The position numbers and the translations under genes were made by a program. Source: an uncultured Candidatus Saccharibacteria bacterium (GTDB lineage: Bacteria > Patescibacteriota > Minisyncoccia > Phycocordibacterales > UBA6899). From it: a DNA stretch of 64,000 nucleotides. The notes under the pieces were generated by a model that saw only the letters and a list, made by a program, of their open reading frames with translations, ran no database searches and was not told the origin of the DNA. How positions within the stretch are numbered: the stretch's first letter is position 1; every line of letters starts with the position of its first letter. Location of the stretch: assembly GCA_964469335.1 (NCBI GenBank), contig CAYXYK010000003.1, forward strand, positions 68,671 through 132,670, read 5' to 3'. Shown in pieces: positions 2,322 through 64,000 of this stretch.

Positions 2322-2369
2322 TTCCACAAAGAAAAATTCCTGCGTAAGCAGGAATTTTTCTTTGTGGAA
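2322..2369 (+). terminator. Perfect 22-bp palindromic hairpin (A-tract/T-tract arms; bidirectional-terminator-like)
   Basis: ttccacaaagaaaaattcctgc gtaa gcaggaatttttctttgtggaa. Confidence 0.55.
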
Positions 2370-2597
2370 GAATAAAACAAGCGAACTTCTTCGTTGCGGG
2401 GCCCCAGCGACTCAGTCACCGTACTCCGAGTACGCCTCCTTCGCCGCAATCCCCGCGCCTTGAATTTCATCTTGTTTTATTCTTCCTGAATGCCCAGAAA
2501 ATTAACAAGACAAAGGTGTTCGACATGGGGGTTCGGCTACGTTATAGTAGGTGGACTTCAGGCCGTTTGCGCTTAGTTGACAGCTCTGGAAAACATC

Positions 2598-5093
2598 ATG
2601 AAATTACTGAACAAACTATTCAAAACAGAAGGAGAAAAAGAAGTGCAGCGACTTTGGCCGATCGTGGAGAAGATAAACGGATATGAAGCGGAGATCAAGA
2701 CACTTTCAGACGAAGCACTCACGGAGAAGACACACGAGTTTAAAAAAAGATTAGCAGAAGGAGAGACGCTCGATGATATTCTTCCCGAAGCATTCGCAGT
2801 TGTACGTGAAGGATCACTCCGCACGCTTGGGCAGCGTCACTACGATGTGCAGCTCCTTGGCGGCATCATCCTACACAAGGGAATGATTGCCGAGATGAAG
2901 ACCGGTGAGGGAAAGACGCTTGTCGCAACACTGCCGACCTACCTCAACGCACTGAGCGGTAAGGGCGTACATATTGTCACCGTCAACGACTACCTTTCTT
3001 CCCGCGATGCAGTGTCGATGGGACAGATCCATGCATTCCTCGGACTCACTGTCGGAGTGATCAATCATGACTCATCCTATCTCTATGATAAGACCCAGGT
3101 CGCTAGCGATGAGTCGCGTGATGAGACCGGTTCATTCCGCGTCTTCCACGAGTTCCTTCGTCCGTCAACAAGAAGAGAAGCATATGCAGCGGACATCACC
3201 TACGGAACGAATAACGAATTCGGGTTCGACTATCTGCGCGATAATATCTCATATGAAGCGAAAGATCTGCGGCAGAGAGAGTTCAACTTCGCTATCGTCG
3301 ACGAGATCGATTCCATCCTCATCGACGAAGCACGAACCCCACTCATCATCTCTGCTCCAGCACAGGATTCCGAGTCACTTTATGCTACATTCGCAGCTAT
3401 CGCGACGAAACTCTCTGCACCGGGGGATTTCACCGTCGACGAGAAGCTCAAGGCAGTCCAGATCACCGATGAGGGGATCACTAAAGCCGAACAACTTCTT
3501 GGTGTCGAGAATATCTATACAGAAAAAGGCATCAAATATGTCCATCATCTGGAAACCGCGGTACGTGCAAAGGCTCTTTTCCTCAAAGATAGAGAATATG
3601 TGATCAAGGGAGACGAGGTCATCATCGTCGACGAATTCACCGGGCGATTGCAGCCCGGCCGTCGTTGGTCAGAAGGGCTCCATCAGGCGATCGAGGCAAA
3701 AGAAGGGGTGAAAGTGCAGCAGGAGTCTCGTACCATGGCGTCGATCACTTTCCAGAACTACTTCAAACTGTACGGCAAGCTCTCCGGTATGACAGGTACA
3801 GCGCTCACTTCGAGCGAGGAATTCCTCAAGATCTATGGGCTCGACGTGATTCCGGTCCCCCCAAATCGTCCGTCTGTCCGTATCGACAACAATGACCTGA
3901 TCTTTCAGACCGAACAAGGGAAGTTCAAGGCGATCGCACGCAAGGTGAAGGAACTCCACGATAAAGGCCAACCGGTACTCATCGGTACCGTCTCGGTCGA
4001 GAAGAATGAACTTCTGTCCGCTTTTCTCACTCACGAAGGGGTACCTCATGAGCTTTTGAATGCAAAGAATCACGAACGGGAAGGTGAGATCATCGCACAA
4101 GCAGGTCGTGATGCATCGGTCGTCATCGCCACCAACATGGCGGGCCGTGGCGTCGACATCAAGCTCGGCGGTAATCCTGGAAGTCCTGAAGCATATACGA
4201 CAGTGAAGGAGCACGGCGGGCTTTTCGTCTTGGGTACCGAACGCCACGAAGCTCGTCGTATCGATAACCAGCTGCGCGGTCGCTCAGGACGCCAAGGTGA
4301 TCCCGGCGAGACACAGTTCTTCGTCTCACTCGAGGATTCGCTGATGCGTATCTTCGCATCTGACACCATCAAGAGCATGATGGGTCGTTTCGGTATCCCC
4401 GAGGATGAACCGATCGAGAACCGTATGATCACTCGAGCCTTGGAGAACGCACAGGAGAAGATAGAAGGATTCAATTTCGACGCCCGCAAGCACGTACTCC
4501 AGTACGACAACATCATCAATCTTCATCGTAAGACGATGTATGAGCGTCGCCGAAAACTCTTGCTCGGCACGAAGGAAGAAGTAAAAGGATATTTCGACAA
4601 TCTCATCGCCGAGGCAGGTGAGTTTGGTGAGGAGATTGAGAAGGCAAAGAACGAGAAGATCGCGATCATCGGCGAGGATTCTTTCTATGATGTGGTTCGC
4701 CGACTGGCATTACAGACAAATGACATGTTCTGGATCGACCACCTCGAGCTGATGGATTACGCTCGATCATCGGTCAATCTGCGCGCATACGGACAGCGTG
4801 ACCCTCTAGTTGAGTACAAGCATGAAGGACTTAGGCTTTACAAAGAGATGGAGGAGGGGATCAGACATCAGATACTTGAAATGATTCCACGTATCGAAGT
4901 TGGAGCATTCGTACAGCGCGAAGCAGAACTCAAGAAAGTCGAAGCACAGATGACACTCGCGGGAGGGGCGAATACCGGAGACGCAACCACTTCGCAAGCG
5001 AAAAAGACTGACGAGCATGCAATCGGGCGAAACGACCCCTGCTGGTGCGGTAGCGGGAAGAAATTCAAGAAGTGCCACGGTGCTGAAGCATAA
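2598..5093 (+). CDS. secA: Preprotein translocase ATPase SecA
   Basis: KTGEGKTLVATLPTYLNAL Walker A/DEAD motor; C-terminal zinc finger CWCGSGKKFKKCHG; start chosen at MKLLNKLF (the ORF also has an in-frame ATG at 2577). Confidence 0.93.
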   Translation: MKLLNKLFKTEGEKEVQRLWPIVEKINGYEAEIKTLSDEALTEKTHEFKKRLAEGETLDDILPEAFAVVREGSLRTLGQRHYDVQLLGGIILHKGMIAEMKTGEGKTLVATLPTYLNALSGKGVHIVTVNDYLSSRDAVSMGQIHAFLGLTVGVINHDSSYLYDKTQVASDESRDETGSFRVFHEFLRPSTRREAYAADITYGTNNEFGFDYLRDNISYEAKDLRQREFNFAIVDEIDSILIDEARTPLIISAPAQDSESLYATFAAIATKLSAPGDFTVDEKLKAVQITDEGITKAEQLLGVENIYTEKGIKYVHHLETAVRAKALFLKDREYVIKGDEVIIVDEFTGRLQPGRRWSEGLHQAIEAKEGVKVQQESRTMASITFQNYFKLYGKLSGMTGTALTSSEEFLKIYGLDVIPVPPNRPSVRIDNNDLIFQTEQGKFKAIARKVKELHDKGQPVLIGTVSVEKNELLSAFLTHEGVPHELLNAKNHEREGEIIAQAGRDASVVIATNMAGRGVDIKLGGNPGSPEAYTTVKEHGGLFVLGTERHEARRIDNQLRGRSGRQGDPGETQFFVSLEDSLMRIFASDTIKSMMGRFGIPEDEPIENRMITRALENAQEKIEGFNFDARKHVLQYDNIINLHRKTMYERRRKLLLGTKEEVKGYFDNLIAEAGEFGEEIEKAKNEKIAIIGEDSFYDVVRRLALQTNDMFWIDHLELMDYARSSVNLRAYGQRDPLVEYKHEGLRLYKEMEEGIRHQILEMIPRIEVGAFVQREAELKKVEAQMTLAGGANTGDATTSQAKKTDEHAIGRNDPCWCGSGKKFKKCHGAEA

Positions 5094-9436: not shown

Positions 9437-9560
9437 GTGGTTTTCAATTCCGGCGAATTTCATCGTTGCCTGCGTCGTGAGTCGGCTCAACGTACGATGA
9501 GTACGTCTCGCCGGCATTACTTCATTTGCGCCTCGAACTTCATTAAGAATTGAAAACCAT
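9437..9560 (+). other. Nested long inverted-repeat structure in the intergenic region (candidate structured RNA or complex terminator)
   Basis: Outer arms gtggttttcaattc(9437-9450) / gaattgaaaaccat(9547-9560); inner ccggcga / tcgccgg; innermost cgtac-gatga-gtacg. Confidence 0.4.
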
Positions 9561-18483: not shown

Positions 18484-19071
18484 TTGCCATATATGGCAAC
18501 CAAAAAAACCACGACAAAAAAGAAGGTAGCAAAGAAGACTACCAAGAAAGTTACGAAGAAAGCAGTGAAGAAGACCGCTCCTAAAAAAGCTGTGGCTAAG
18601 GTCATATCCCTGAAAGTGGGAGAGATTGCACCGGACTTCACCATGGCGTCGACCGATGGAGGAAATGTGAAACTCTCCACACTCCGTGGCAAACGCGTGG
18701 TCCTGTATTTCTACCCGAAAGATATGACGAGCGGCTGCACCATCGAGGCGCACGAGTTCTCCGCTGTTGCGAAGGAATTCGCCAAGAAGGGGACTCTCGT
18801 GTTCGGTGTAAGCCCGGACGACATCGAAAGTCATCATAAGTTCATCAAGAAGGATGCTCTCACTTTTCCGCTTCTTGCCGACATTGGACATACGGTCGCG
18901 GAGAAATACGGCATCTGGGTTGAGAAGAGTATGTATGGGAAGAGATATATGGGCATCGAGCGCTCAACATTCGTTGTTGGAAAGGATGGAAAACTCGAGC
19001 AGGTATATCGCAAGGTTTCACCTGAGGGCCACGCGGTATGTGTTCTTGAAGATATAGCACAGAGTAAGTAA
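18484..19071 (+). CDS. bcp: Peroxiredoxin Bcp (thiol peroxidase) with a Lys-rich N-terminal extension
   Basis: RVVLYFYPKDMTSGCTIEAHEF peroxidatic Cys motif; N-terminal about 40 aa is KK-rich (TKKTTTKKKVAKKTTKKVTKKAVKKTAPKKAVAKV). Confidence 0.85.
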   Translation: MPYMATKKTTTKKKVAKKTTKKVTKKAVKKTAPKKAVAKVISLKVGEIAPDFTMASTDGGNVKLSTLRGKRVVLYFYPKDMTSGCTIEAHEFSAVAKEFAKKGTLVFGVSPDDIESHHKFIKKDALTFPLLADIGHTVAEKYGIWVEKSMYGKRYMGIERSTFVVGKDGKLEQVYRKVSPEGHAVCVLEDIAQSK

Positions 19072-19163
19072 ATTTTGTACTCTGCTCGTCTTTCCCTCGA
19101 CAAGTCTGGTCACCATAGATGACTATGGCTCCCAGACATTATCTCAGTCCACGACTTCGTATT
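19070..19163 (+). repeat. Structured intergenic repeat, copy A (partner at 56930-57025)
   Basis: aattttg..ctcgtctttccctc..[gtctgg tcac catag atga ctatgg ctc ccagac]..ctcagtccacgacttcgtatt; shares its flanks and hairpin architecture with copy B. Confidence 0.6.
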
Positions 19164-19209
19164 TCATATAACTATGAAGGTCTGATGCAAGAAGTCATTT
19201 TGAAAAACC

Positions 19210-19947
19210 ATGCAAATAACAATCGCAACTTGGAACATCGCAGGAGGAAGGCCGATCCGTTCGGAAGGGCGTTTTGATTATGATGCTGAGGATGTTGAGT
19301 ACTTCACCAAGCAACTTAGACTGGTCAATCCAGATGTGGTGTGTTTACAAGAGACACATATAAATAGTGAGCGGTCAGTCGCAAAAGAAATAGCGCAATC
19401 TCTCGGATTACGTATTCACGAAACAGCAATGAGTCCTTCTCATATCGATAGTCGCTATTCACTTGGAAACGCATTGTTGCACAAAGTGTCTGAGACAAAA
19501 GAGCAAGACTACATCTTCCCATATCCGTCATTTTCGCTTGTGCTCCCAGATGGAAAACCGGCGGCACATCACGATAAAGGATTTCAGATAGACGACATCA
19601 GCACACTCTCCGTAGTCAATCTTCAGATGATGCCATTAAAATTCCTCGGTACGCCATACGACTCACATAATGGTGAAGTGTTCGCAAAAGAAATGGAAGA
19701 CATTCTCCTGAAGTACGTGAGGGACTCAGCTGTTATTTGTGGTGATTTCAACTTCGCGAATCCTAAACAGCTCTACTCGCGGTTGCTTTCAAATCGTAAT
19801 GATGTGCTTCCAGATGTTCCGACTCGTCCGGAGGGAAAGAAGACAGACTTCATTTTTGTTCCCGAAGGAATTGTTTGTATTGATTCTGGGGTCATCAAAA
19901 CAAACACCGACCATTTTCTCTGTTGGGTGACGCTAGAAATTGCTTAA
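19210..19947 (+). CDS. Endonuclease/exonuclease/phosphatase (EEP) family protein
   Basis: N-terminal TWNIAGG and C-terminal DH motifs of the EEP fold. Confidence 0.72.
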   Translation: MQITIATWNIAGGRPIRSEGRFDYDAEDVEYFTKQLRLVNPDVVCLQETHINSERSVAKEIAQSLGLRIHETAMSPSHIDSRYSLGNALLHKVSETKEQDYIFPYPSFSLVLPDGKPAAHHDKGFQIDDISTLSVVNLQMMPLKFLGTPYDSHNGEVFAKEMEDILLKYVRDSAVICGDFNFANPKQLYSRLLSNRNDVLPDVPTRPEGKKTDFIFVPEGIVCIDSGVIKTNTDHFLCWVTLEIA

Positions 19948-43185: not shown

Positions 43186-44574
43186 ATGGGTACACTTACT
43201 TCGAAGAGCGCATGGCTTCGGCCAGCTACGATTTTCCTCACGTTCACAGTCCTTTTTTCCATAGGAGGGACGGTTTTGGCGCAAACGGCGTCGAGCACAC
43301 CGCCAGCTGCGCCAGTCGACAAGGAAGCGCTGCTCCAGCAGCAGCTCGATGATATCAACCTTGAGATCAAAGGACTCAATAACACCATCGGTGGGCTACA
43401 AGGACAAGGAAAGACACTCAATGGTGATATCAAGCTCCTCAACGCGAATATCGAAAAGGCAACACTCAATATTAAGGCGAAGAATCTGCAGATCTCACAG
43501 CTCTCTCAGGGGATCACTGAGAAATCACGTACCGTCCGTACGCTCTCACAGAAACTCGAGGCGGAGCGACAGTCGCTGGCACAGCTGATACGGAAGACCA
43601 ATGAGCTCGACCAGGCGTCACTTACCGAGATGCTCTTTTCGAACGAAGATCTCTCGAGTTTCTTCCTCGATCTCGATTCATTCGACGCACTACGTGCCGG
43701 ACTCAAGAATTCCTCTGATGCGCTCAAGAGTGCAAAATCAGAGACTGAGGCCGCTCAAGCTGCGCTCGAGGAGAAACAACAAAAAGAGATGGATGCAAAA
43801 GCAGAACTCCAACGCAATAAGCAGCTGGTGGAGTCCAATCAGGCCGAGAAGAAACGGCTCCTGTCGATCACAACGAACAAAGAACGGGAATATCAGAAGG
43901 TGCTTGCGGACCGAAAGAAGAAAGCCGCGGAGATCCGCGCTGCACTGTTCGCGCTTCGTGATTCGGGCGAGATCAATTTCGGAAAAGCGCTCGATTATGC
44001 GAATCTCGTCTCTGCGAAGACCGGCATCCGCCCGGCATTCCTCCTTGCCGTGTTCATGCAGGAATCGAGCTTCGGAAAGAATCAGGGTTCATGCTATCTC
44101 AAAGACAAATCGACCGGCTCAGGTATCGGTGTACGCTCCGGAAGCACGATCGCAAAAGTGATGAATCCTTCTCGTGATGTTCCACCATTCCTGAAGATCA
44201 CCGCTGCGCTCGGGAAGGATCCATACAACACGTTGGTGTCATGTCCTCAGGAAGTGGGGTGGGGAGGTGCGATGGGAGCAGCACAGTTCATTCCTTCAAC
44301 ATGGGAAATGATCTCGGGGCGTATCACGTCGGCGCTTGGCACCGATGCGGCAGACCCGTGGAGTGCCCGCGATGCGTTCATGGCGGCAGGGATTTATCTC
44401 ACTGATATCGGAGCGGTGTCCGGTAGCTATAGTGCGGAGCGCGACGCAGCATGTCGCTATTTCTCAGGCAGTAAATGCAGCAAGTCGAGCTGGGCGAGAA
44501 CGTATGGGGATCAGGTGATGGCGAAGGCTGCGAACATCCAGACCACCATGATCGACCCACTACAGAATACGTAA
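43186..44574 (+). CDS. Secreted coiled-coil protein with C-terminal lytic-transglycosylase-like (SLT/lysozyme-like) domain
   Basis: Signal peptide; long coiled coil; LLAVFMQESSFGKN (catalytic Glu-Ser) and GAMGAAQFIPSTW motifs; TATAAT (43169-43174) upstream; start at MGTLTSK. Confidence 0.62.
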   Translation: MGTLTSKSAWLRPATIFLTFTVLFSIGGTVLAQTASSTPPAAPVDKEALLQQQLDDINLEIKGLNNTIGGLQGQGKTLNGDIKLLNANIEKATLNIKAKNLQISQLSQGITEKSRTVRTLSQKLEAERQSLAQLIRKTNELDQASLTEMLFSNEDLSSFFLDLDSFDALRAGLKNSSDALKSAKSETEAAQAALEEKQQKEMDAKAELQRNKQLVESNQAEKKRLLSITTNKEREYQKVLADRKKKAAEIRAALFALRDSGEINFGKALDYANLVSAKTGIRPAFLLAVFMQESSFGKNQGSCYLKDKSTGSGIGVRSGSTIAKVMNPSRDVPPFLKITAALGKDPYNTLVSCPQEVGWGGAMGAAQFIPSTWEMISGRITSALGTDAADPWSARDAFMAAGIYLTDIGAVSGSYSAERDAACRYFSGSKCSKSSWARTYGDQVMAKAANIQTTMIDPLQNT

Positions 44575-44722
44575 TTTGAGCGCATCGCTCGGTTTTCCCT
44601 CGGCGGGTTTGGAGGCAGTACTATCAGTACAGCTTCGCAAACACCGCCTCAGTCCAAACCTTCGCACTGCATCTCAAATAACGTATTCTGGAATTTCAAT
44701 TTTGCAAAAATATTTTTGGTAA

Positions 44723-44770: not shown

Positions 44771-45547
44771 TCAGCTGCGGAGATCGCGTCGGAAGTTGAT
44801 CAGGTCGGAGAAGAACCGGCCGATCTTGTACCAACGCGTCGCCTTGAGCGCGATGAGCTCCTTGAGCGCCGAGCGGGTGAAGACGATCTTGTCCTGCAGG
44901 TCGCGGTAGCGGTTGTCGGTCGAATTGCCTTGCCAGACATGCTCGGTGCGGCCTTCGAGGTACAACAGGATGCCGTCCATCACCGACTTCTGCTCGACAT
45001 TGAGTGACTCTGCGGTCACGAGCGCCTTGGTGAGGCGCTGCACTTCACCGCTGAGCATGCGGTTGGTGCCCTCGACTCCGGCCGCCGCGATCTCGGTCAG
45101 CTCCAGGATGGTCTGCTCTCGGCCGGCCGGGGTGATCTCGCCACGGCGGATCTTCCGGATCGTCTCTTTGATCTTCGCCAAGGTCGGAGCACGGACGGTC
45201 ATCTCACGGTGGAGCACCCGTTCGTGGTTCACGATCTTGCGGCTGACAACGAGACGGACCTCGGGATCGCCGACGTCGTAATTACCGGTCTGGAGGACCT
45301 CGTCACTGAACACAGCTGTGAACACTGGCATGTCGACCTCGATCTTGGCAGAAAACCACTCGATGTCATCCGCGAGGTCATCGCGAATGACGAGATCGGG
45401 CTCTTGGAACAGGTCATGTTCAATCCGGATGTAATTGCCACGCGCTTCGGTGCCAACGTCCAGGTCGGTCGGTGCGTGGACTCGACACGTGCCATTGAGG
45501 CTGAGTGTGATGCGCGCCTCTTTCTTGAGGAAGCAGAAAATGGACAT
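44771..45547 (-). CDS. Hypothetical protein in a GC-rich patch
   Basis: 258-aa ORF from an ATG preceded by AAGGAAA; the minus strand is chosen over overlapping ORFs because it has a terminator and an RBS; no recognisable family. Confidence 0.4.
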   Translation of the reverse strand: MSIFCFLKKEARITLSLNGTCRVHAPTDLDVGTEARGNYIRIEHDLFQEPDLVIRDDLADDIEWFSAKIEVDMPVFTAVFSDEVLQTGNYDVGDPEVRLVVSRKIVNHERVLHREMTVRAPTLAKIKETIRKIRRGEITPAGREQTILELTEIAAAGVEGTNRMLSGEVQRLTKALVTAESLNVEQKSVMDGILLYLEGRTEHVWQGNSTDNRYRDLQDKIVFTRSALKELIALKATRWYKIGRFFSDLINFRRDLRS

Positions 45548-45794
45548 GAGATTTCCTTCACAATATCGCCTTGTACGCCAACTCTTCGTTGGTCGCTCCG
45601 GTCGATCTGTTTCAAAGAACGGGCGAGGTGAGTCGCCCACGAGTGTCACCGTGCGTAGGCAAAGTAACATGAACATTATAGCACAAAATAGACTATATAG
45701 TCAAATATGGAGGAGAAGTCATTGAGCATCTTTGGAAAATAGGGAACTTCGCGTTCTGGGTATACAGCATCGAAATTGATATATAATTAACAAT

Positions 45795-47063: not shown

Positions 47064-47200
47064 GCTAGACTTCTAGAACTCGCGCCCTGCTTGATCTTCC
47101 TTCGGCCAGCTCGACAATGTATAAGCATACATCCTACGAGTATGCCCTCAGAACAGATCTGCGCATTGCATCGAATTCTGTAAGTCTTCATAATACCTGT

Positions 47201-48983: not shown

Positions 48984-49147
48984 ACTTGCCTGTTCGGCTA
49001 CCTCCTTCGTTGCCAGCGTCATGAATCTCCTCAACGTACTCGAAGTACGTCTCGGAGATATCATTCCTCGGCGCCTCGGATATCATCCGAACAACCAAGT
49101 TTAAAGATTCAAAATGGAATTCTTTGTAAGTTAATTGAAACAACAAT

Positions 49148-56929: not shown

Positions 56930-57025
56930 AATTTTGGCGCATTACTCGTCTTTCCCTCAGGAATTCCAGTCACCGTAGAATAACTACGGCTCCTGGAAAT
57001 TCCCTCAGTCCAAGACTTCTGTATT
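56930..57025 (+). repeat. Structured intergenic repeat, copy B (partner at 19070-19163)
   Basis: aattttg..ctcgtctttccctc..[ttccag tcac cgtag aataa ctacgg ctc ctggaa]..ctcagtccaagacttctgtatt. Confidence 0.6.
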
Positions 57026-57117
57026 GGATTCAAAAAATACGTAAATATACAAAGTGTTCAATCCAGCACTTTGTATGACACTCAAAATTCGATGTCCAAT
57101 CGACTTCTCATGCATAT

Positions 57118-57153
57118 AAAAAGAAAAACGGAGCCAATGTTGACTCCGTTTCA
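57118..57153 (-). terminator. Intrinsic terminator (minus strand)
   Basis: On the minus strand: AAACGGAGTCAACATTGGCTCCGTTTTTCTTTTT. Confidence 0.7.
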
Positions 57154-57690
57154 ATTCATGCGCCCACGTTCGGGGAAGTGCTGTTTCATCAGCGTCTGGA
57201 AGAAGTCGCGCAGCGTTTCCGCCTGGATCAGGTTGCGGTTCAACTCTGCATTCACGCTCGGATGGAACAGTGGGTGTGCGAGGTCCAACGTGAATTCTTC
57301 ATCGGACAGGGCGCGCTTGTCAGCGACGTTCTTCTCGAGATGTGCAAGGTAGTCCACGAGCAGTTCGCGAGTAGACACCAGGTAGGGGAAGCGAACTTTC
57401 GCTTTCATGAGTGGTTCGCCACTTTGGATGAACGCTTCTAGCGCGTCCTGGTAGCGAGCCGGGGGGATCGAGCGTTCGTCAAAGAACACTTTGGGAAGTC
57501 TCGGGTTCTTTCGTCCGGCGCTCGTCCTCCAGTCCAAGATGAAGAAGATGATGTCCATCAGTTCGCTGCTGTCACTTTGGCTGTAAACGACCTCGACGTC
57601 GCCTACGGCGCAGAGCCGTGTGATTGCCGCTCCTGTCTCTGTCGAGTGTGGGATGCCTTTCGTTGTGGGAAGAACACTTATTTCGAGCAT
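57151..57690 (-). CDS. Hypothetical protein
   Basis: 179-aa ORF with its own terminator; no recognisable family. Confidence 0.4.
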   Translation of the reverse strand: MLEISVLPTTKGIPHSTETGAAITRLCAVGDVEVVYSQSDSSELMDIIFFILDWRTSAGRKNPRLPKVFFDERSIPPARYQDALEAFIQSGEPLMKAKVRFPYLVSTRELLVDYLAHLEKNVADKRALSDEEFTLDLAHPLFHPSVNAELNRNLIQAETLRDFFQTLMKQHFPERGRMN

Positions 57691-57798: not shown

Positions 57799-57826
57799 TT
57801 GACAAAATGTATTTTTTGTGTATAAT
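57799..57826 (+). promoter_or_regulatory. Consensus sigma70-type promoter (TTGACA-N16-TATAAT)
   Basis: ttgacaaaatgtattttttgtgtataat; the ATG of the downstream gene lies 9 nt after the -10 box. Confidence 0.6.
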
Positions 57827-57835
57827 GCAGATACT

Positions 57836-58990
57836 ATGACATCACCAGATTCCGTTGATTTTGACCCGACAGTTCGCACCAAGGAGGAACCCTCTCCCGC
57901 AAGTGATGCGGAAGGATTGACCGAACAAGAGGCTGAGGCCTATGCCTCGGAAGTTATCGCTACCGTACAAGAAACGAGTCGCCCAGTGCCCTCATACGAG
58001 GCAGAAGCGGTCGCCGCCCTCTCGGAAGCGATCCAAGAGCAACTTGATGGCAGTGCGCGATTCGCGAATGACGCAGAATTCCAAGCTGCAAAGGACGGAC
58101 TTGCGAACGAAGTATATGGAAATTCTGGGCCGGAACGAATCGTGAACGGCCAGCAAGAGGTTTCTGACGCCGAATTCGCAGCCGCAAAAAGACAGCTTGA
58201 ACAAGAGGTGTACAGTCAGAGAGGAGGTGTCGTCGCTGCCGAGGAAATTCCCGCCGAAATTCCCGCTCCTTTGACCGAGACGTCCTCTGGCACTCTCGCG
58301 ACGAGAATGATCAATAACACTGATGCAGCGATCCGTAGTGTCCTGCCTCCTGCAGTAGGGAATCTCGCAGACCGTGCACAAGTAGCGATCGAAAAAGGAT
58401 GGAGTAGTCTTAAGGGAAAACTCAGCGGGATGTGGAAGCGCACAGATGCGCCTGCTCCAATTGCACAGACACAACCAGTGGTGACACCGAGAACCGAAAG
58501 TGCGCCTGCCAGCGCTCCCATGAGTGCGAGAGCCACTGAGGTCCCACGTCAACAGCAAAACAGGGAGACTCCTGCTCCGGATGGAGTGAGCGCTGCTCTT
58601 GATCGGATGTACAAGGAAATGAGTCCTGAGGCTCGTGCGCGAATGGATGCTTCGAGAGCAGAGACAGAAAGGATTCTTGCGCAAAAAAGCCCCGAGATGC
58701 TCGACCTCGAGAGTCAGATCGAAGAGTTAGAACAACGTATGGCCAAAAAGTCCGGAGGAACTACATACCAGCGCCATGACTATGGTATTCAGGGTGCCCA
58801 CTATACGCGGAAAGCAGGTACTGCGGCTCGCTCCGAGCGATTCATGGACGACGCGATTATCAATCAGGGAAATGCCGCCGAGAAGGAACAGCAAGAACTA
58901 GCGGCACTCCGCAACCGTCTCTTCGCCGAAGGCTTGAAGCAGGGGAAGAAGAACAGCGATGCCCTTGCAGCAATGCGAAAACAAAAGTAG
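57836..58990 (+). CDS. Acidic Ala/Glu-rich hypothetical protein with internal repeats
   Basis: Repeated DAEF(Q/A)AAK..L..EVY(G/S) units; no TM; a GTG at 57818 is the alternative in-frame start. Confidence 0.45.
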   Translation: MTSPDSVDFDPTVRTKEEPSPASDAEGLTEQEAEAYASEVIATVQETSRPVPSYEAEAVAALSEAIQEQLDGSARFANDAEFQAAKDGLANEVYGNSGPERIVNGQQEVSDAEFAAAKRQLEQEVYSQRGGVVAAEEIPAEIPAPLTETSSGTLATRMINNTDAAIRSVLPPAVGNLADRAQVAIEKGWSSLKGKLSGMWKRTDAPAPIAQTQPVVTPRTESAPASAPMSARATEVPRQQQNRETPAPDGVSAALDRMYKEMSPEARARMDASRAETERILAQKSPEMLDLESQIEELEQRMAKKSGGTTYQRHDYGIQGAHYTRKAGTAARSERFMDDAIINQGNAAEKEQQELAALRNRLFAEGLKQGKKNSDALAAMRKQK

Positions 58991-62905: not shown

Positions 62906-64000
62906 TTAACGTTGTTTTCTTTTTTTCTTGTAGTCCTTGCGGTACGGTTCCGACACGCGTTCGAATTCCTTGCACAAGGCGAAGGTCTTCGCATCGGTGC
63001 GGGTAGGAGCGATCACTTGTTTGTAATAGTGAAGAAACTCTGCGATGATGCCGCGGATCACCTCGGGCGAATCGTTCCACAGCTCCTTGGTAAGGTAGCT
63101 TTGGATGATGCCATGGATGCGGCGACGTTTCTTCTGCGGGAAGACCAATACCGCTTGTCTCGCTTCGCTGCGTTCATCCGAGTCCTCACGCATTCCGACC
63201 TTGGTCACGAACACCGTTCCCATGTGACGAGAGCGAACCGTGCTCTTTCGGTGATTTACTGCGAATCCGGCATCAGCGATGAACTGGCGTATCTCTTGGC
63301 GCATGAAGAACGGGATCGGGATGCCGCGCGAGAATACCAGATCGTCGACATAGCGGGTGTATGTCACGGTGCGCTCGGGTGCCTTGCGGTCGAGCTTCTT
63401 GAAGAAGAACGTGCGTAGGCGCGAGTCGAGGAACACTTCACAGTACAGGTTCAGCAGCATCGGGGAGAGCGGCCCTCCGACCGCGAGTCCTTTGCCGTGC
63501 ATCCCGCCGAATGCGAATGCGACGAAACTTTGCATGCGTGGGAAAAGCGGGTCAGAGCGGAGCGCGAAGTGCGCAAGCTCATTGCGGGCAAACTGGTCTA
63601 CGGAATAGAAGACGCCGTACTCCTCATGGCGGAAGATGAAGGTGAGGAGGAGCGACAGCCGTTCAAGATCGACGGAAGGATACGCATGAGCGAAGTCGGT
63701 GGTGTAGAAGAATTCACCTTGCGTATGCTTCTCCGAGTTCTTCATCGGGTTCGACTTCTTCACACAGCCGGTCGCGGAGGGGAGGATGCGCAGCCACTTG
63801 CCGTCGTCTCCCATCGCTTCGAGCTGGTGACGCAGGAACGTTTCGAACAAGTGATGCAGTTTGCGCATCGCACCATTCGGGTGTCCTATCAATCTGCGCT
63901 TGCCGCGCAGTTTGTTGGGGGGCTTCACTCCCTTTTTCTCTTTCGGGTCACCCCATCTGAAATTGAAATCAGGCACACCGCTCACTTCCGAGAGCAGTGT
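62906..64000 (-). CDS. Reverse transcriptase, retron-type/standalone bacterial RT (N-terminus runs off the window)
   Basis: RT motif A (YTTDFAHAYPSVD), motif B' (GLAVGGPLSPMLLNLY), motif C (YTRYVDDLVFS); a retron-like NxxKS...FVTKVG region follows YVDD; the frame is open to the window edge. Confidence 0.78.
   Translation of the reverse strand, partial: TLLSEVSGVPDFNFRWGDPKEKKGVKPPNKLRGKRRLIGHPNGAMRKLHHLFETFLRHQLEAMGDDGKWLRILPSATGCVKKSNPMKNSEKHTQGEFFYTTDFAHAYPSVDLERLSLLLTFIFRHEEYGVFYSVDQFARNELAHFALRSDPLFPRMQSFVAFAFGGMHGKGLAVGGPLSPMLLNLYCEVFLDSRLRTFFFKKLDRKAPERTVTYTRYVDDLVFSRGIPIPFFMRQEIRQFIADAGFAVNHRKSTVRSRHMGTVFVTKVGMREDSDERSEARQAVLVFPQKKRRRIHGIIQSYLTKELWNDSPEVIRGIIAEFLHYYKQVIAPTRTDAKTFALCKEFERVSEPYRKDYKKKRKQR

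Follow-up and report, generated by a model that had tools for sequence, protein, structure and literature searches.

The 64,000-nt stretch of contig CAYXYK010000003.1 analysed here (the window) comes from an uncultured bacterium of the Candidate Phyla Radiation (CPR), and its GyrB has its closest named relatives in Candidatus Lloydbacteria (CPR/Parcubacteria). Two related segments follow a bcp-like gene and gyrB. The first, copy A (19070–19165), starts within the TAA stop codon of an open reading frame (ORF) that ends at 19071 and is assigned to AhpC/TSA by Pfam; the gene that follows it, at 19210–19947, encodes a phosphatase/nuclease-family (EEP) protein. The second, copy B (56930–57027), starts 5 nt past the end (56925) of the ORF identified by Pfam as GyrB. 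When aligned, the two are identical at 82% of columns and have in common the exact blocks CTCGTCTTTCCCTC and CTCAGTCCA(C/A)GACTTC, between which lies a two-step nested hairpin whose stems differ in sequence and remain self-complementary in both copies. On the plus strand of copy A, CTCGTCTTTCCCTC occupies 19085–19098, the variable nested hairpin 19104–19137, and CTCAGTCCACGAC 19144–19156. The 14-mer CTCGTCTTTCCCTC has two exact occurrences in the window, and all other matches carry at least two mismatches. A sequence-only reading of the window had reported the positions, shared blocks and nested stems of both segments, and direct inspection of the sequence bears these out. What was observed is real, but it is incomplete, as each segment forms the core of a longer imperfect hairpin.

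A covariance model was first built from three copies and then rebuilt from 21 (model R2), and the window was searched with filters off. Copies A and B score 90–106 bits against the covariance model (E ~1e-23 to 1e-29), far above chance. R2 identifies seven copies in the window at 47–98 bits, all in the same orientation, with the next-best match at 13 bits. The element had been described as present twice and about 95 nt long; both figures are underestimates, as most copies have a further outer stem that brings the total to ~110–130 nt. The seven copies, with the extent of each followed by its R2 core, are:

2366–2486, minus strand: copy H (subfamily 2), a full hairpin by sequence and fold; core 2374–2468, 52.9 bits
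9439–9558, minus strand: copy F (subfamily 2); core 9446–9541, 65 bits
19069–19165, minus strand: copy A (subfamily 1), beginning within the TAA of the bcp-like ORF and without a clear outer stem; core 19070–19165, 89.5 bits
44563–44690, minus strand: copy D (subfamily 1), at the SLT-domain gene (SLT_2 by Pfam); core 44573–44670, 97.6 bits
47067–47187, minus strand: copy E (divergent subfamily 1), in the rpmE-prfA spacer; core 47075–47169, 67.7 bits
48981–49103, minus strand: copy G (subfamily 2), in the rpsB-tsf spacer; core 48990–49084, 47 bits
56930–57037, minus strand: copy B (subfamily 1), after gyrB; core 56930–57027, 95.3 bits

The outer stems and their immediate surroundings vary from copy to copy. 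Copy H has a perfect outer stem of 16 bp (GGAAGAATAAAACAAG / CTTGTTTTATTCTTCC) and lies past a terminator-like hairpin, ~90 nt upstream of secA (SecA by Pfam). The 12-bp outer stem of copy F (GGTTTTCAATTC / GAATTGAAAACC) begins 4 nt past the stop codon of a DUF2339 gene and ends 20 nt ahead of the next ORF. Copy D has an 18-bp outer stem (CAGAATACGTAATTTGAG / CTCAAATAACGTATTCTG) that takes in the TAA of the SLT-domain gene and the three codons before it, and its helix P1 is GGUUU/AAACC in place of GUCUU/AAGAC. Copy E, in which P1 is GAUCU/AGAUC, also lies past a terminator-like hairpin and ends 14 nt ahead of the prfA ATG. The first bases of the outer stem of copy G (TAAACTTG / CAAGTTTA) are the rpsB stop codon, and copy B retains a weak 5-bp remnant (TTTTG / CAAAA). 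Three sizeable ORFs that adjoin copies have no Pfam match: 44771–45676 (minus strand, 301 aa), 57151–57690 (minus strand, 179 aa) and 57818–58990 (plus strand, 390 aa).

Copies in related genomes

The loci compared were the gyrB loci of relatives, 80 rpsB loci from metagenomes and three EEP-gene loci, cited below by L numbers where individual loci must be told apart. Across the window, L008 and loci at the level of Lloydbacteria (RpsB at least 70% identical), R2 recovers 30 distinct copies. Five more occur at bcp and obg sites in the loci around the bcp-like gene, for a total of ~35 copies, ~28 of them outside the window. R2 scores over all copies span 23–98 bits, against 13 bits for the best background match. 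The 64 loci from more distant Parcubacteria (RpsB 40–53% identical) contain no R2 copy, and the region after rpsB in these loci has no comparable structure.

A pattern scan of species-representative genomes, one per species and without the window's own genome, returned one real relative (L008, a metagenome-assembled genome labelled 'bacterium') and three chance matches in high-GC genomes. Among viral contigs, the exact 22-base pattern of subfamily 1 matched three related phage contigs (L002–L004, IMG/VR); these matches lie inside an apparent coding region, form no hairpin and were set aside as chance. The subfamily 2 pattern had no match among the viral contigs. When the whole window was compared with Rfam 15 at the gathering threshold, tRNA was the only match, and permissive scans of copies A, D, E and G gave chance-level matches with E above 1, so the element itself corresponds to no Rfam family. 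No description of it was found when the literature on CPR, Parcubacteria and Lloydbacteria was searched for repeats and structured RNAs, although coverage was incomplete and the result is absence of evidence only. The family is apparently undescribed; the general kind of element, a dispersed palindromic repeat, is already familiar.

Hairpin architecture, covariation and strand

The same long imperfect hairpin is predicted in every copy when each is folded with its flanks. A nearly perfect outer stem of 5–20 bp, different in sequence in each copy, is followed just inside by a conserved bulged A, then by three or four short helices split by small internal loops, and finally by an apical stem that is commonly (C)GTAC-loop-GTAC(G). 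At least two subfamilies are distinguished on the better-folding strand. Subfamily 1 (copies A, B, D and the more divergent E) carries GGACUGAG / GAGGGAAAGAC, and subfamily 2 (copies F, G and H) carries GAUGAAGUUCGAGGCG / CAACGAAGAAAUUCGC. Copies are 50–80% identical to each other.

Covariation is strong. In the alignment of 30 copies, 88.8% of pair cells are standard pairs, compared with 63% when partners are shuffled and 32–44% when partners are slid by 1–3 columns; the alignment was fitted to the model, which somewhat inflates the paired fraction, but the margin is large. Changes on both sides are seen in 25 of the 28 pairs (222 cells), and single-sequence folds reach the same architecture independently of the alignment. 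The stems are kept paired across copies. Because stems differ between copies and yet stay complementary, the structure has been maintained and the copies are not a plain recent duplication. The same claim had been made from copies A and B, and it is strengthened by the wider set, in which the further copies covary as well.

The two strands of the element are not equivalent. Folding z-scores relative to shuffled sequence are −5.6 and −5.0 on the minus strand of copies A and B, and −2.2 and −3.2 on the plus strand, so that the complement of the strand described in the sequence-only reading is the one that folds better. Mean z-scores for the two strands over the copies are −5.6 and −4.6. Internal-loop columns are 80% purine on the window's minus strand (hereafter the purine-loop strand), and this holds on both arms; paired columns are 52% purine. 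Since both arms are purine-rich in the loops, G/A faces G/A in the fold of one strand, and C/U faces C/U in that of the other. Purine loops confined in this way to one strand would not be expected of a plain DNA palindrome. The purine-loop strand is the more stable in 28 of 30 copies, with a mean of −52.1 versus −43.0 kcal/mol.

This difference in stability, together with conserved G.U pairs beside tandem G-A loops, would be consistent with small RNA genes that are expressed independently from the purine-loop strand and run antisense to neighbouring genes at their 3' ends. Such genes are nevertheless very unlikely. No sigma-70-like promoter precedes the purine-loop strand at copies B, D, E and G, and no T-run follows it. 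Copies occur in both orientations and within an ORF, and none matches Rfam. The wobble pairs do not settle the strand: there are 64 G.T and 31 A.C pairs, but four columns beside the G-A loops account for 43 of the G.T pairs, and elsewhere the counts are 21 and 31, which does not favour the purine-loop strand. Counting G.U against A.C as a test of strand was dropped, as the excess is confined to these four columns. The small RNA offered as one option in the sequence-only reading therefore gains nothing from promoter-like sites ahead of the better-folding strand or from Rfam.

Several other assignments were considered for the hairpin. No reading frame is shared across the copies. The apical segment GAGCCGUA...UACGGU (for example 56970–56995, minus strand), which has a conserved G.U, is similar to the lower helix in domain 5 of group II introns. 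This candidate was rejected, and the likeness is taken as coincidence because the bulge, upper helix and GNRA loop are lacking and there is no Rfam intron match. The topology is unsuitable for the cores of hammerhead or other small ribozymes, which likewise have no Rfam match here.

Position, site conservation and turnover

The element is closely tied to the ends of genes. For 16 listed copies at eight sites, the core starts from 2 nt inside to 11 nt past the upstream stop codon, and the gap on the downstream side is larger. The outer stem often begins in or just past this stop codon, and often includes it. The site after the SLT-domain gene is the clearest example: seven distinct sequences have both the gene end and an R2 match, and all have an outer stem of 18–19 bp in which the last three codons, the stop codon and six further bases are paired with the far arm. 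The arms covary between species, with CAGAAYACGTAA in five sequences and CTRAATTCCTGA in two; the corresponding site in L011 has a divergent element-like sequence. Either the ORF enters the element and borrows a stop codon from it, or complementarity to the end of the gene is maintained in the far arm. Proximity to stop codons may in part come from compact spacers and the cost of disturbing start regions, as copies E and F stop 14–20 nt short of the next start codon.

Stable hairpins directly after genes could also be unusual intrinsic terminators that lack a U-tract, a reading that we regard as highly improbable. Past the outer stem there is no T-run on either strand, and copies are found within the rpsB-tsf spacer and within dnaE. 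The genome does have canonical terminators, in which a GC-rich stem precedes a T-run, and terminator-like hairpins occur on the downstream side of copies C and D and on the upstream side of copies E and H. Because these separate hairpins flank the copies, the element is not taken to be a terminator itself and usually falls within the transcript. When each site is counted once, the predicted mRNA carries the pyrimidine-loop version at ~10 sites and the purine-loop version at three, namely upstream of rpsB (L013/L017/L031), in the rpmE-prfA spacer (L026) and inside dnaE (L015). A copy that follows the minus-strand dnaE of L009 is flipped together with the gene, and GC skew in the window is positive throughout the syntenic region. 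This suggests that orientation follows transcription rather than replication, in a single case for which the direction of replication in L009 is inferred from another genome.

Two side observations concern neighbouring sequences. Directly after the rpsB stop codon in L029 (1118–1230) lies an unrelated AT-rich palindrome of ~110 nt with AATTTTC-like units (z-scores −5.4/−6.4), undetected by R2. In L013, an annotated gene of 55 aa (3206–3373) overlaps a copy at 3248–3341 and is probably spurious.

Many copies occupy the same site in several species, including the sites after the SLT-domain gene and between rpmE and prfA. The rpsB site is occupied in the window, L013, L015, L017, L022 and L011, the gyrB site in the window, L011 and L012, and the bcp-like site in the window, L098 and L099, with a copy of a different type in L097. 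Nearest-neighbour identities often link copies at the same site.

Comparisons of these loci also provide evidence of turnover. First, relatives differ in whether a copy is present at the gyrB, dnaE, rpsB, obg-bcp and bcp sites. L013 and L015 lack one at gyrB, and in L009 and L010, whose GyrB is 93% identical to that of the window, this site apparently retains two ends only, with the core gone. The residual sequence (L009 12076–12130, and also in L010) resembles both ends of copy B, GATTTTTGGAGTCATAC and TTATGATTCTTTAAAAAAAC, and the part with the apical hairpin has apparently been deleted. The region after rpsB is unstructured in L019, L024, L026, L027 and L030. Second, copies are duplicated, decayed or closer to copies at other sites. 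L026 contains two copies that are 99% identical and 211 nt apart, and copy B is 80% identical to an SLT-site copy of another genome, 73% identical to copy A and at most 68% identical to the same-site copy in L011. In L097, whose EEP-family protein is 87% identical, the copy of a different type sits at the bcp-like stop codon beside a decayed A-type 3' half; the remnant lies within 1340–1430 (CAGTCCACAACTTCGTATTTCATATAAATATGAAG), and the adjacent copy is newer. Third, the rpmE-prfA spacer carries the element in one orientation in the window and L013 and in the opposite orientation in L026.

Fourth, one copy lies within a coding region. DnaE of L015 has ~41 extra residues in a variable loop relative to the 91% identical DnaE of L013, and the DNA that encodes them is a 135-nt hairpin, recognized by R2, that leaves the ORF intact. 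The dnaE gene of L011 (16218–19553, minus strand) has an in-frame 132-nt hairpin insertion (−40 kcal/mol) at codons ~826–870, in the same loop; it shares the outer-stem sequence CAGATTCGG and is too diverged for R2. The dnaE gene of L010 carries an 81-nt insertion at the same place. An inverted orientation of the L011 hairpin was considered and the claim dropped, as alignment scores were not above those of shuffled sequence. Taken together, copies are shown to be inherited at fixed sites across species, yet also gained, lost, duplicated, flipped and decayed between close relatives.

These data bear on a second interpretation, in which the hairpin is a cis-acting mRNA element selected by the host to punctuate polycistronic transcripts at stop codons, and selection rather than mobility conserves the copies. 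Its roles would include setting 3' ends, protecting the upstream cistron, providing an RNase III site or slowing ribosome release. Conservation across species of the sites after the SLT-domain gene, rpsB and the bcp-like gene and in the rpmE-prfA spacer is in its favour, as are the covarying stems, the outer stem that follows the last codons of the SLT-domain gene, the adjacency to stop codons at eight sites and the location within the classical rpsB-tsf operon spacer. However, the sites are dispensable, given the five rpsB loci and four gyrB relatives without an intact copy and the decayed copy in L097. Both orientations occur in one spacer, one copy lies within a coding region, copies E and H are past terminator-like hairpins and not before them, and it is usually the non-transcribed strand that has the conserved purine/purine loops. 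We consider this interpretation less likely. It overlaps with the explanation preferred below, the main difference being what maintains the copies.

A probable dispersed palindromic repeat family

The evidence is best explained if the segments are members of an undescribed dispersed palindromic repeat family in Candidatus Lloydbacteria-like CPR bacteria, usually present as a co-transcribed hairpin close to a stop codon, and we consider this probable. Dispersed palindromic repeats (RPE, ERIC, BOX/RUP and others) are recognized by many similar copies, a long hairpin in each, and presence/absence polymorphism, and all three are found here. Among the options raised by the sequence-only reading, a miniature palindromic repeat family is the best fit; a conserved structure in the 3' untranslated region describes the location of most copies and may also hold.

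The element would be copied and spread at the DNA level through a hairpin-dependent process, for which the turnover data provide support, and would survive where insertion is tolerated, that is, at gene ends, in short spacers and in a variable protein loop. Co-transcription is suggested because most copies follow a stop codon and precede the next gene or terminator, and it would give a long mRNA stem-loop beginning at the stop codon. Judging from position, such a stem-loop might act as a barrier to 3' exonucleases or as an RNase III-type processing site for the upstream cistron. A structural requirement would keep the stems paired, possibly helped by templated correction between the arms of the palindrome, which could give apparent compensation without selection.

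Several observations weigh against this explanation, in addition to the inflation of the paired fraction noted above. Neither a target-site duplication nor a strongly conserved terminal inverted repeat was seen at the ends of the element, and no transposase is encoded among the ~20 window ORFs scanned with Pfam. Although the purine-loop strand folds better (28 of 30 copies), it is antisense to the flanking genes at most sites, and the mRNA would contain the weaker version. Finally, intact hairpins with compensatory changes are kept at the same sites in genomes whose RpsB proteins are only 73–77% identical. Such retention exceeds what simple selfish decay would lead one to expect, and the host could select the structure. 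Retention with compensation and the one-strand purine loops leave room for a real function or a dedicated recognition protein.

Only the inner 6–8 bp of the outer stem are semi-conserved (AATTTTGG, AATTCAG), and the remainder differs per copy. No direct repeats were found at hairpin boundaries, where the flanks give an inverted and not a direct repeat, in a boundary search from minimum free energy folds that is noisy. The element is probably not a strict miniature inverted-repeat transposable element (MITE), because a target-site duplication, strongly conserved terminal repeats and a transposase (~20 window ORFs, Pfam) were not found. It differs from REP elements mobilized by RAYT in its length of ~110–130 nt and identity of 50–80%, and no Y1 transposase is present in the ORFs scanned. 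It differs from integron attC sites in that its ends lack core-site motifs and its neighbours are syntenic housekeeping genes.

A related proposal is that the element is a single-stranded DNA recognition site that is cut or moved by an HUH/Y1-type enzyme or a recombinase, as are REP/RAYT, the ends of IS200/IS605 and integron attC. Conserved structure with varied sequence, loops that are 80% purine on one strand and on both arms, and the lack of target-site duplications and terminal inverted repeats would all suit such a site, and sheared G.A pairs form in DNA as well. We nonetheless consider it unlikely. No Y1/HUH or integrase gene is present among the window ORFs scanned, neither a GTAG-type REP signature nor attC R''/R' core sites (RYYYAAC ... 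GTTRRRY) are visible, and the element is 3–4 times the length of a REP. The L009 copy that flips with minus-strand dnaE, set beside the positive GC skew of the window, also speaks against an orientation tied to replication, with the reservation that this is one case with an inferred direction of replication.

Spread through an RNA intermediate is least probable, and we regard it as extremely improbable. A reverse transcriptase ORF is present at 62906–64000 (minus strand), cut by the end of the window, with a YVDD motif and a Pfam RVT_1 match (E = 7.6e-11); its best PADLOC matches are retron-type reverse transcriptases, and retron msd regions are long imperfect hairpins between inverted repeats. 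However, the copies are scattered far from this ORF, lack anything like an msr and show no conserved unpaired G at the stem base; the bulge conserved past the outer stem is an A. They thus do not resemble a retron msr-msd noncoding RNA. Furthermore, the corresponding region of L009/L010 has no reverse transcriptase, though a copy of the element is present there, and we know of no precedent for hairpin spread mediated by a reverse transcriptase. Any noncoding RNA of the reverse transcriptase itself would lie outside the window.

A bolder possibility, which we consider rather doubtful, is that the hairpin is a functional nucleic-acid module of Lloydbacteria and not a passenger. One of its strands, as RNA or single-stranded DNA, would be a rod of short helices and tandem G.A loops, read by a dedicated protein. 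If so, that protein would mark gene ends in tiny genomes, or the hairpin would support a form of hairpin-dependent mobility without the known transposases that leave terminal inverted repeats and target-site duplications. The signatures of such a system would be the 80%-purine loops on both arms, the long persistence at fixed sites and the co-evolution of outer stems with the last codons of the upstream gene.

The dispersed palindromic repeat family can be compared with several known systems. Similar to REP/BIME elements, its members are extragenic hairpins after genes, and REPs near stop codons affect expression of the upstream gene. However, REPs are 20–40 nt long and near-identical within a genome, and have a GTAG-type head and a RAYT gene, none of which is seen here. 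Irregular stem-loops with internal loops also lie between the cistrons of phage T7, where RNase III-type intercistronic hairpins leave a protective 3' hairpin once cleaved. The comparison concerns function only: the hairpins of T7 do not form a repeat family, and cleavage of the Lloydbacteria-like element would be a proposal drawn from this analogy.

The closest parallels are RPE, ERIC and Correia elements. RPEs are hairpin-forming repeats of reduced genomes that occupy the same sites in related species and have in-frame copies in essential genes (PMC10969869). Both they and the present family are 100–150-bp hairpin repeats of a reduced genome, conserved by site, without an obvious transposase and capable of in-frame insertion (here into dnaE, L015). 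The sequences are unrelated, however, and the host phylum is different; RPEs are mostly reported within ORFs (PMC10969869), whereas here one in-frame case stands against many intergenic copies and there is no conserved reading frame. ERIC elements are ~127-bp imperfect palindromes whose sites are the 3' ends of genes and transcribed intergenic regions (PMC10969869). The present family resembles ERIC/IRU of enterobacteria in its occurrence in both orientations, its site-conserved copies and the effects on mRNA stability, reported there and expected here (PMC10969869). It differs in sequence, and whereas the ERIC consensus is conserved over its full length, here the outer stem is copy-specific and may include the end of the upstream ORF. 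Correia elements, which are MITEs of Neisseria, are likewise dispersed 100–200-bp elements that form long hairpins in mRNA, and their inversion and cleavage by RNase III have been reported (PMC10969869). They are bounded by conserved terminal inverted repeats of 26 bp, duplicate a TA target and contain internal promoters, none of which was found in the present family.

The repeat family makes up ~1.3% of the 64-kb window, or one copy per 9 kb, which is noticeable because CPR genomes are very small and usually described as streamlined. Many spacers between genes are filled by it, copies extend into stop codons and one lies inside dnaE, and the family could yield spurious small ORFs in annotation. 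Its copies could serve as strain markers. The diversity and rich covariation of the family make it well suited to testing how selection on structure can be told apart from self-correction of palindromes. If the hairpins do shape mRNA ends, they would count among the earliest cis-acting RNA features to be described in this uncultured lineage.

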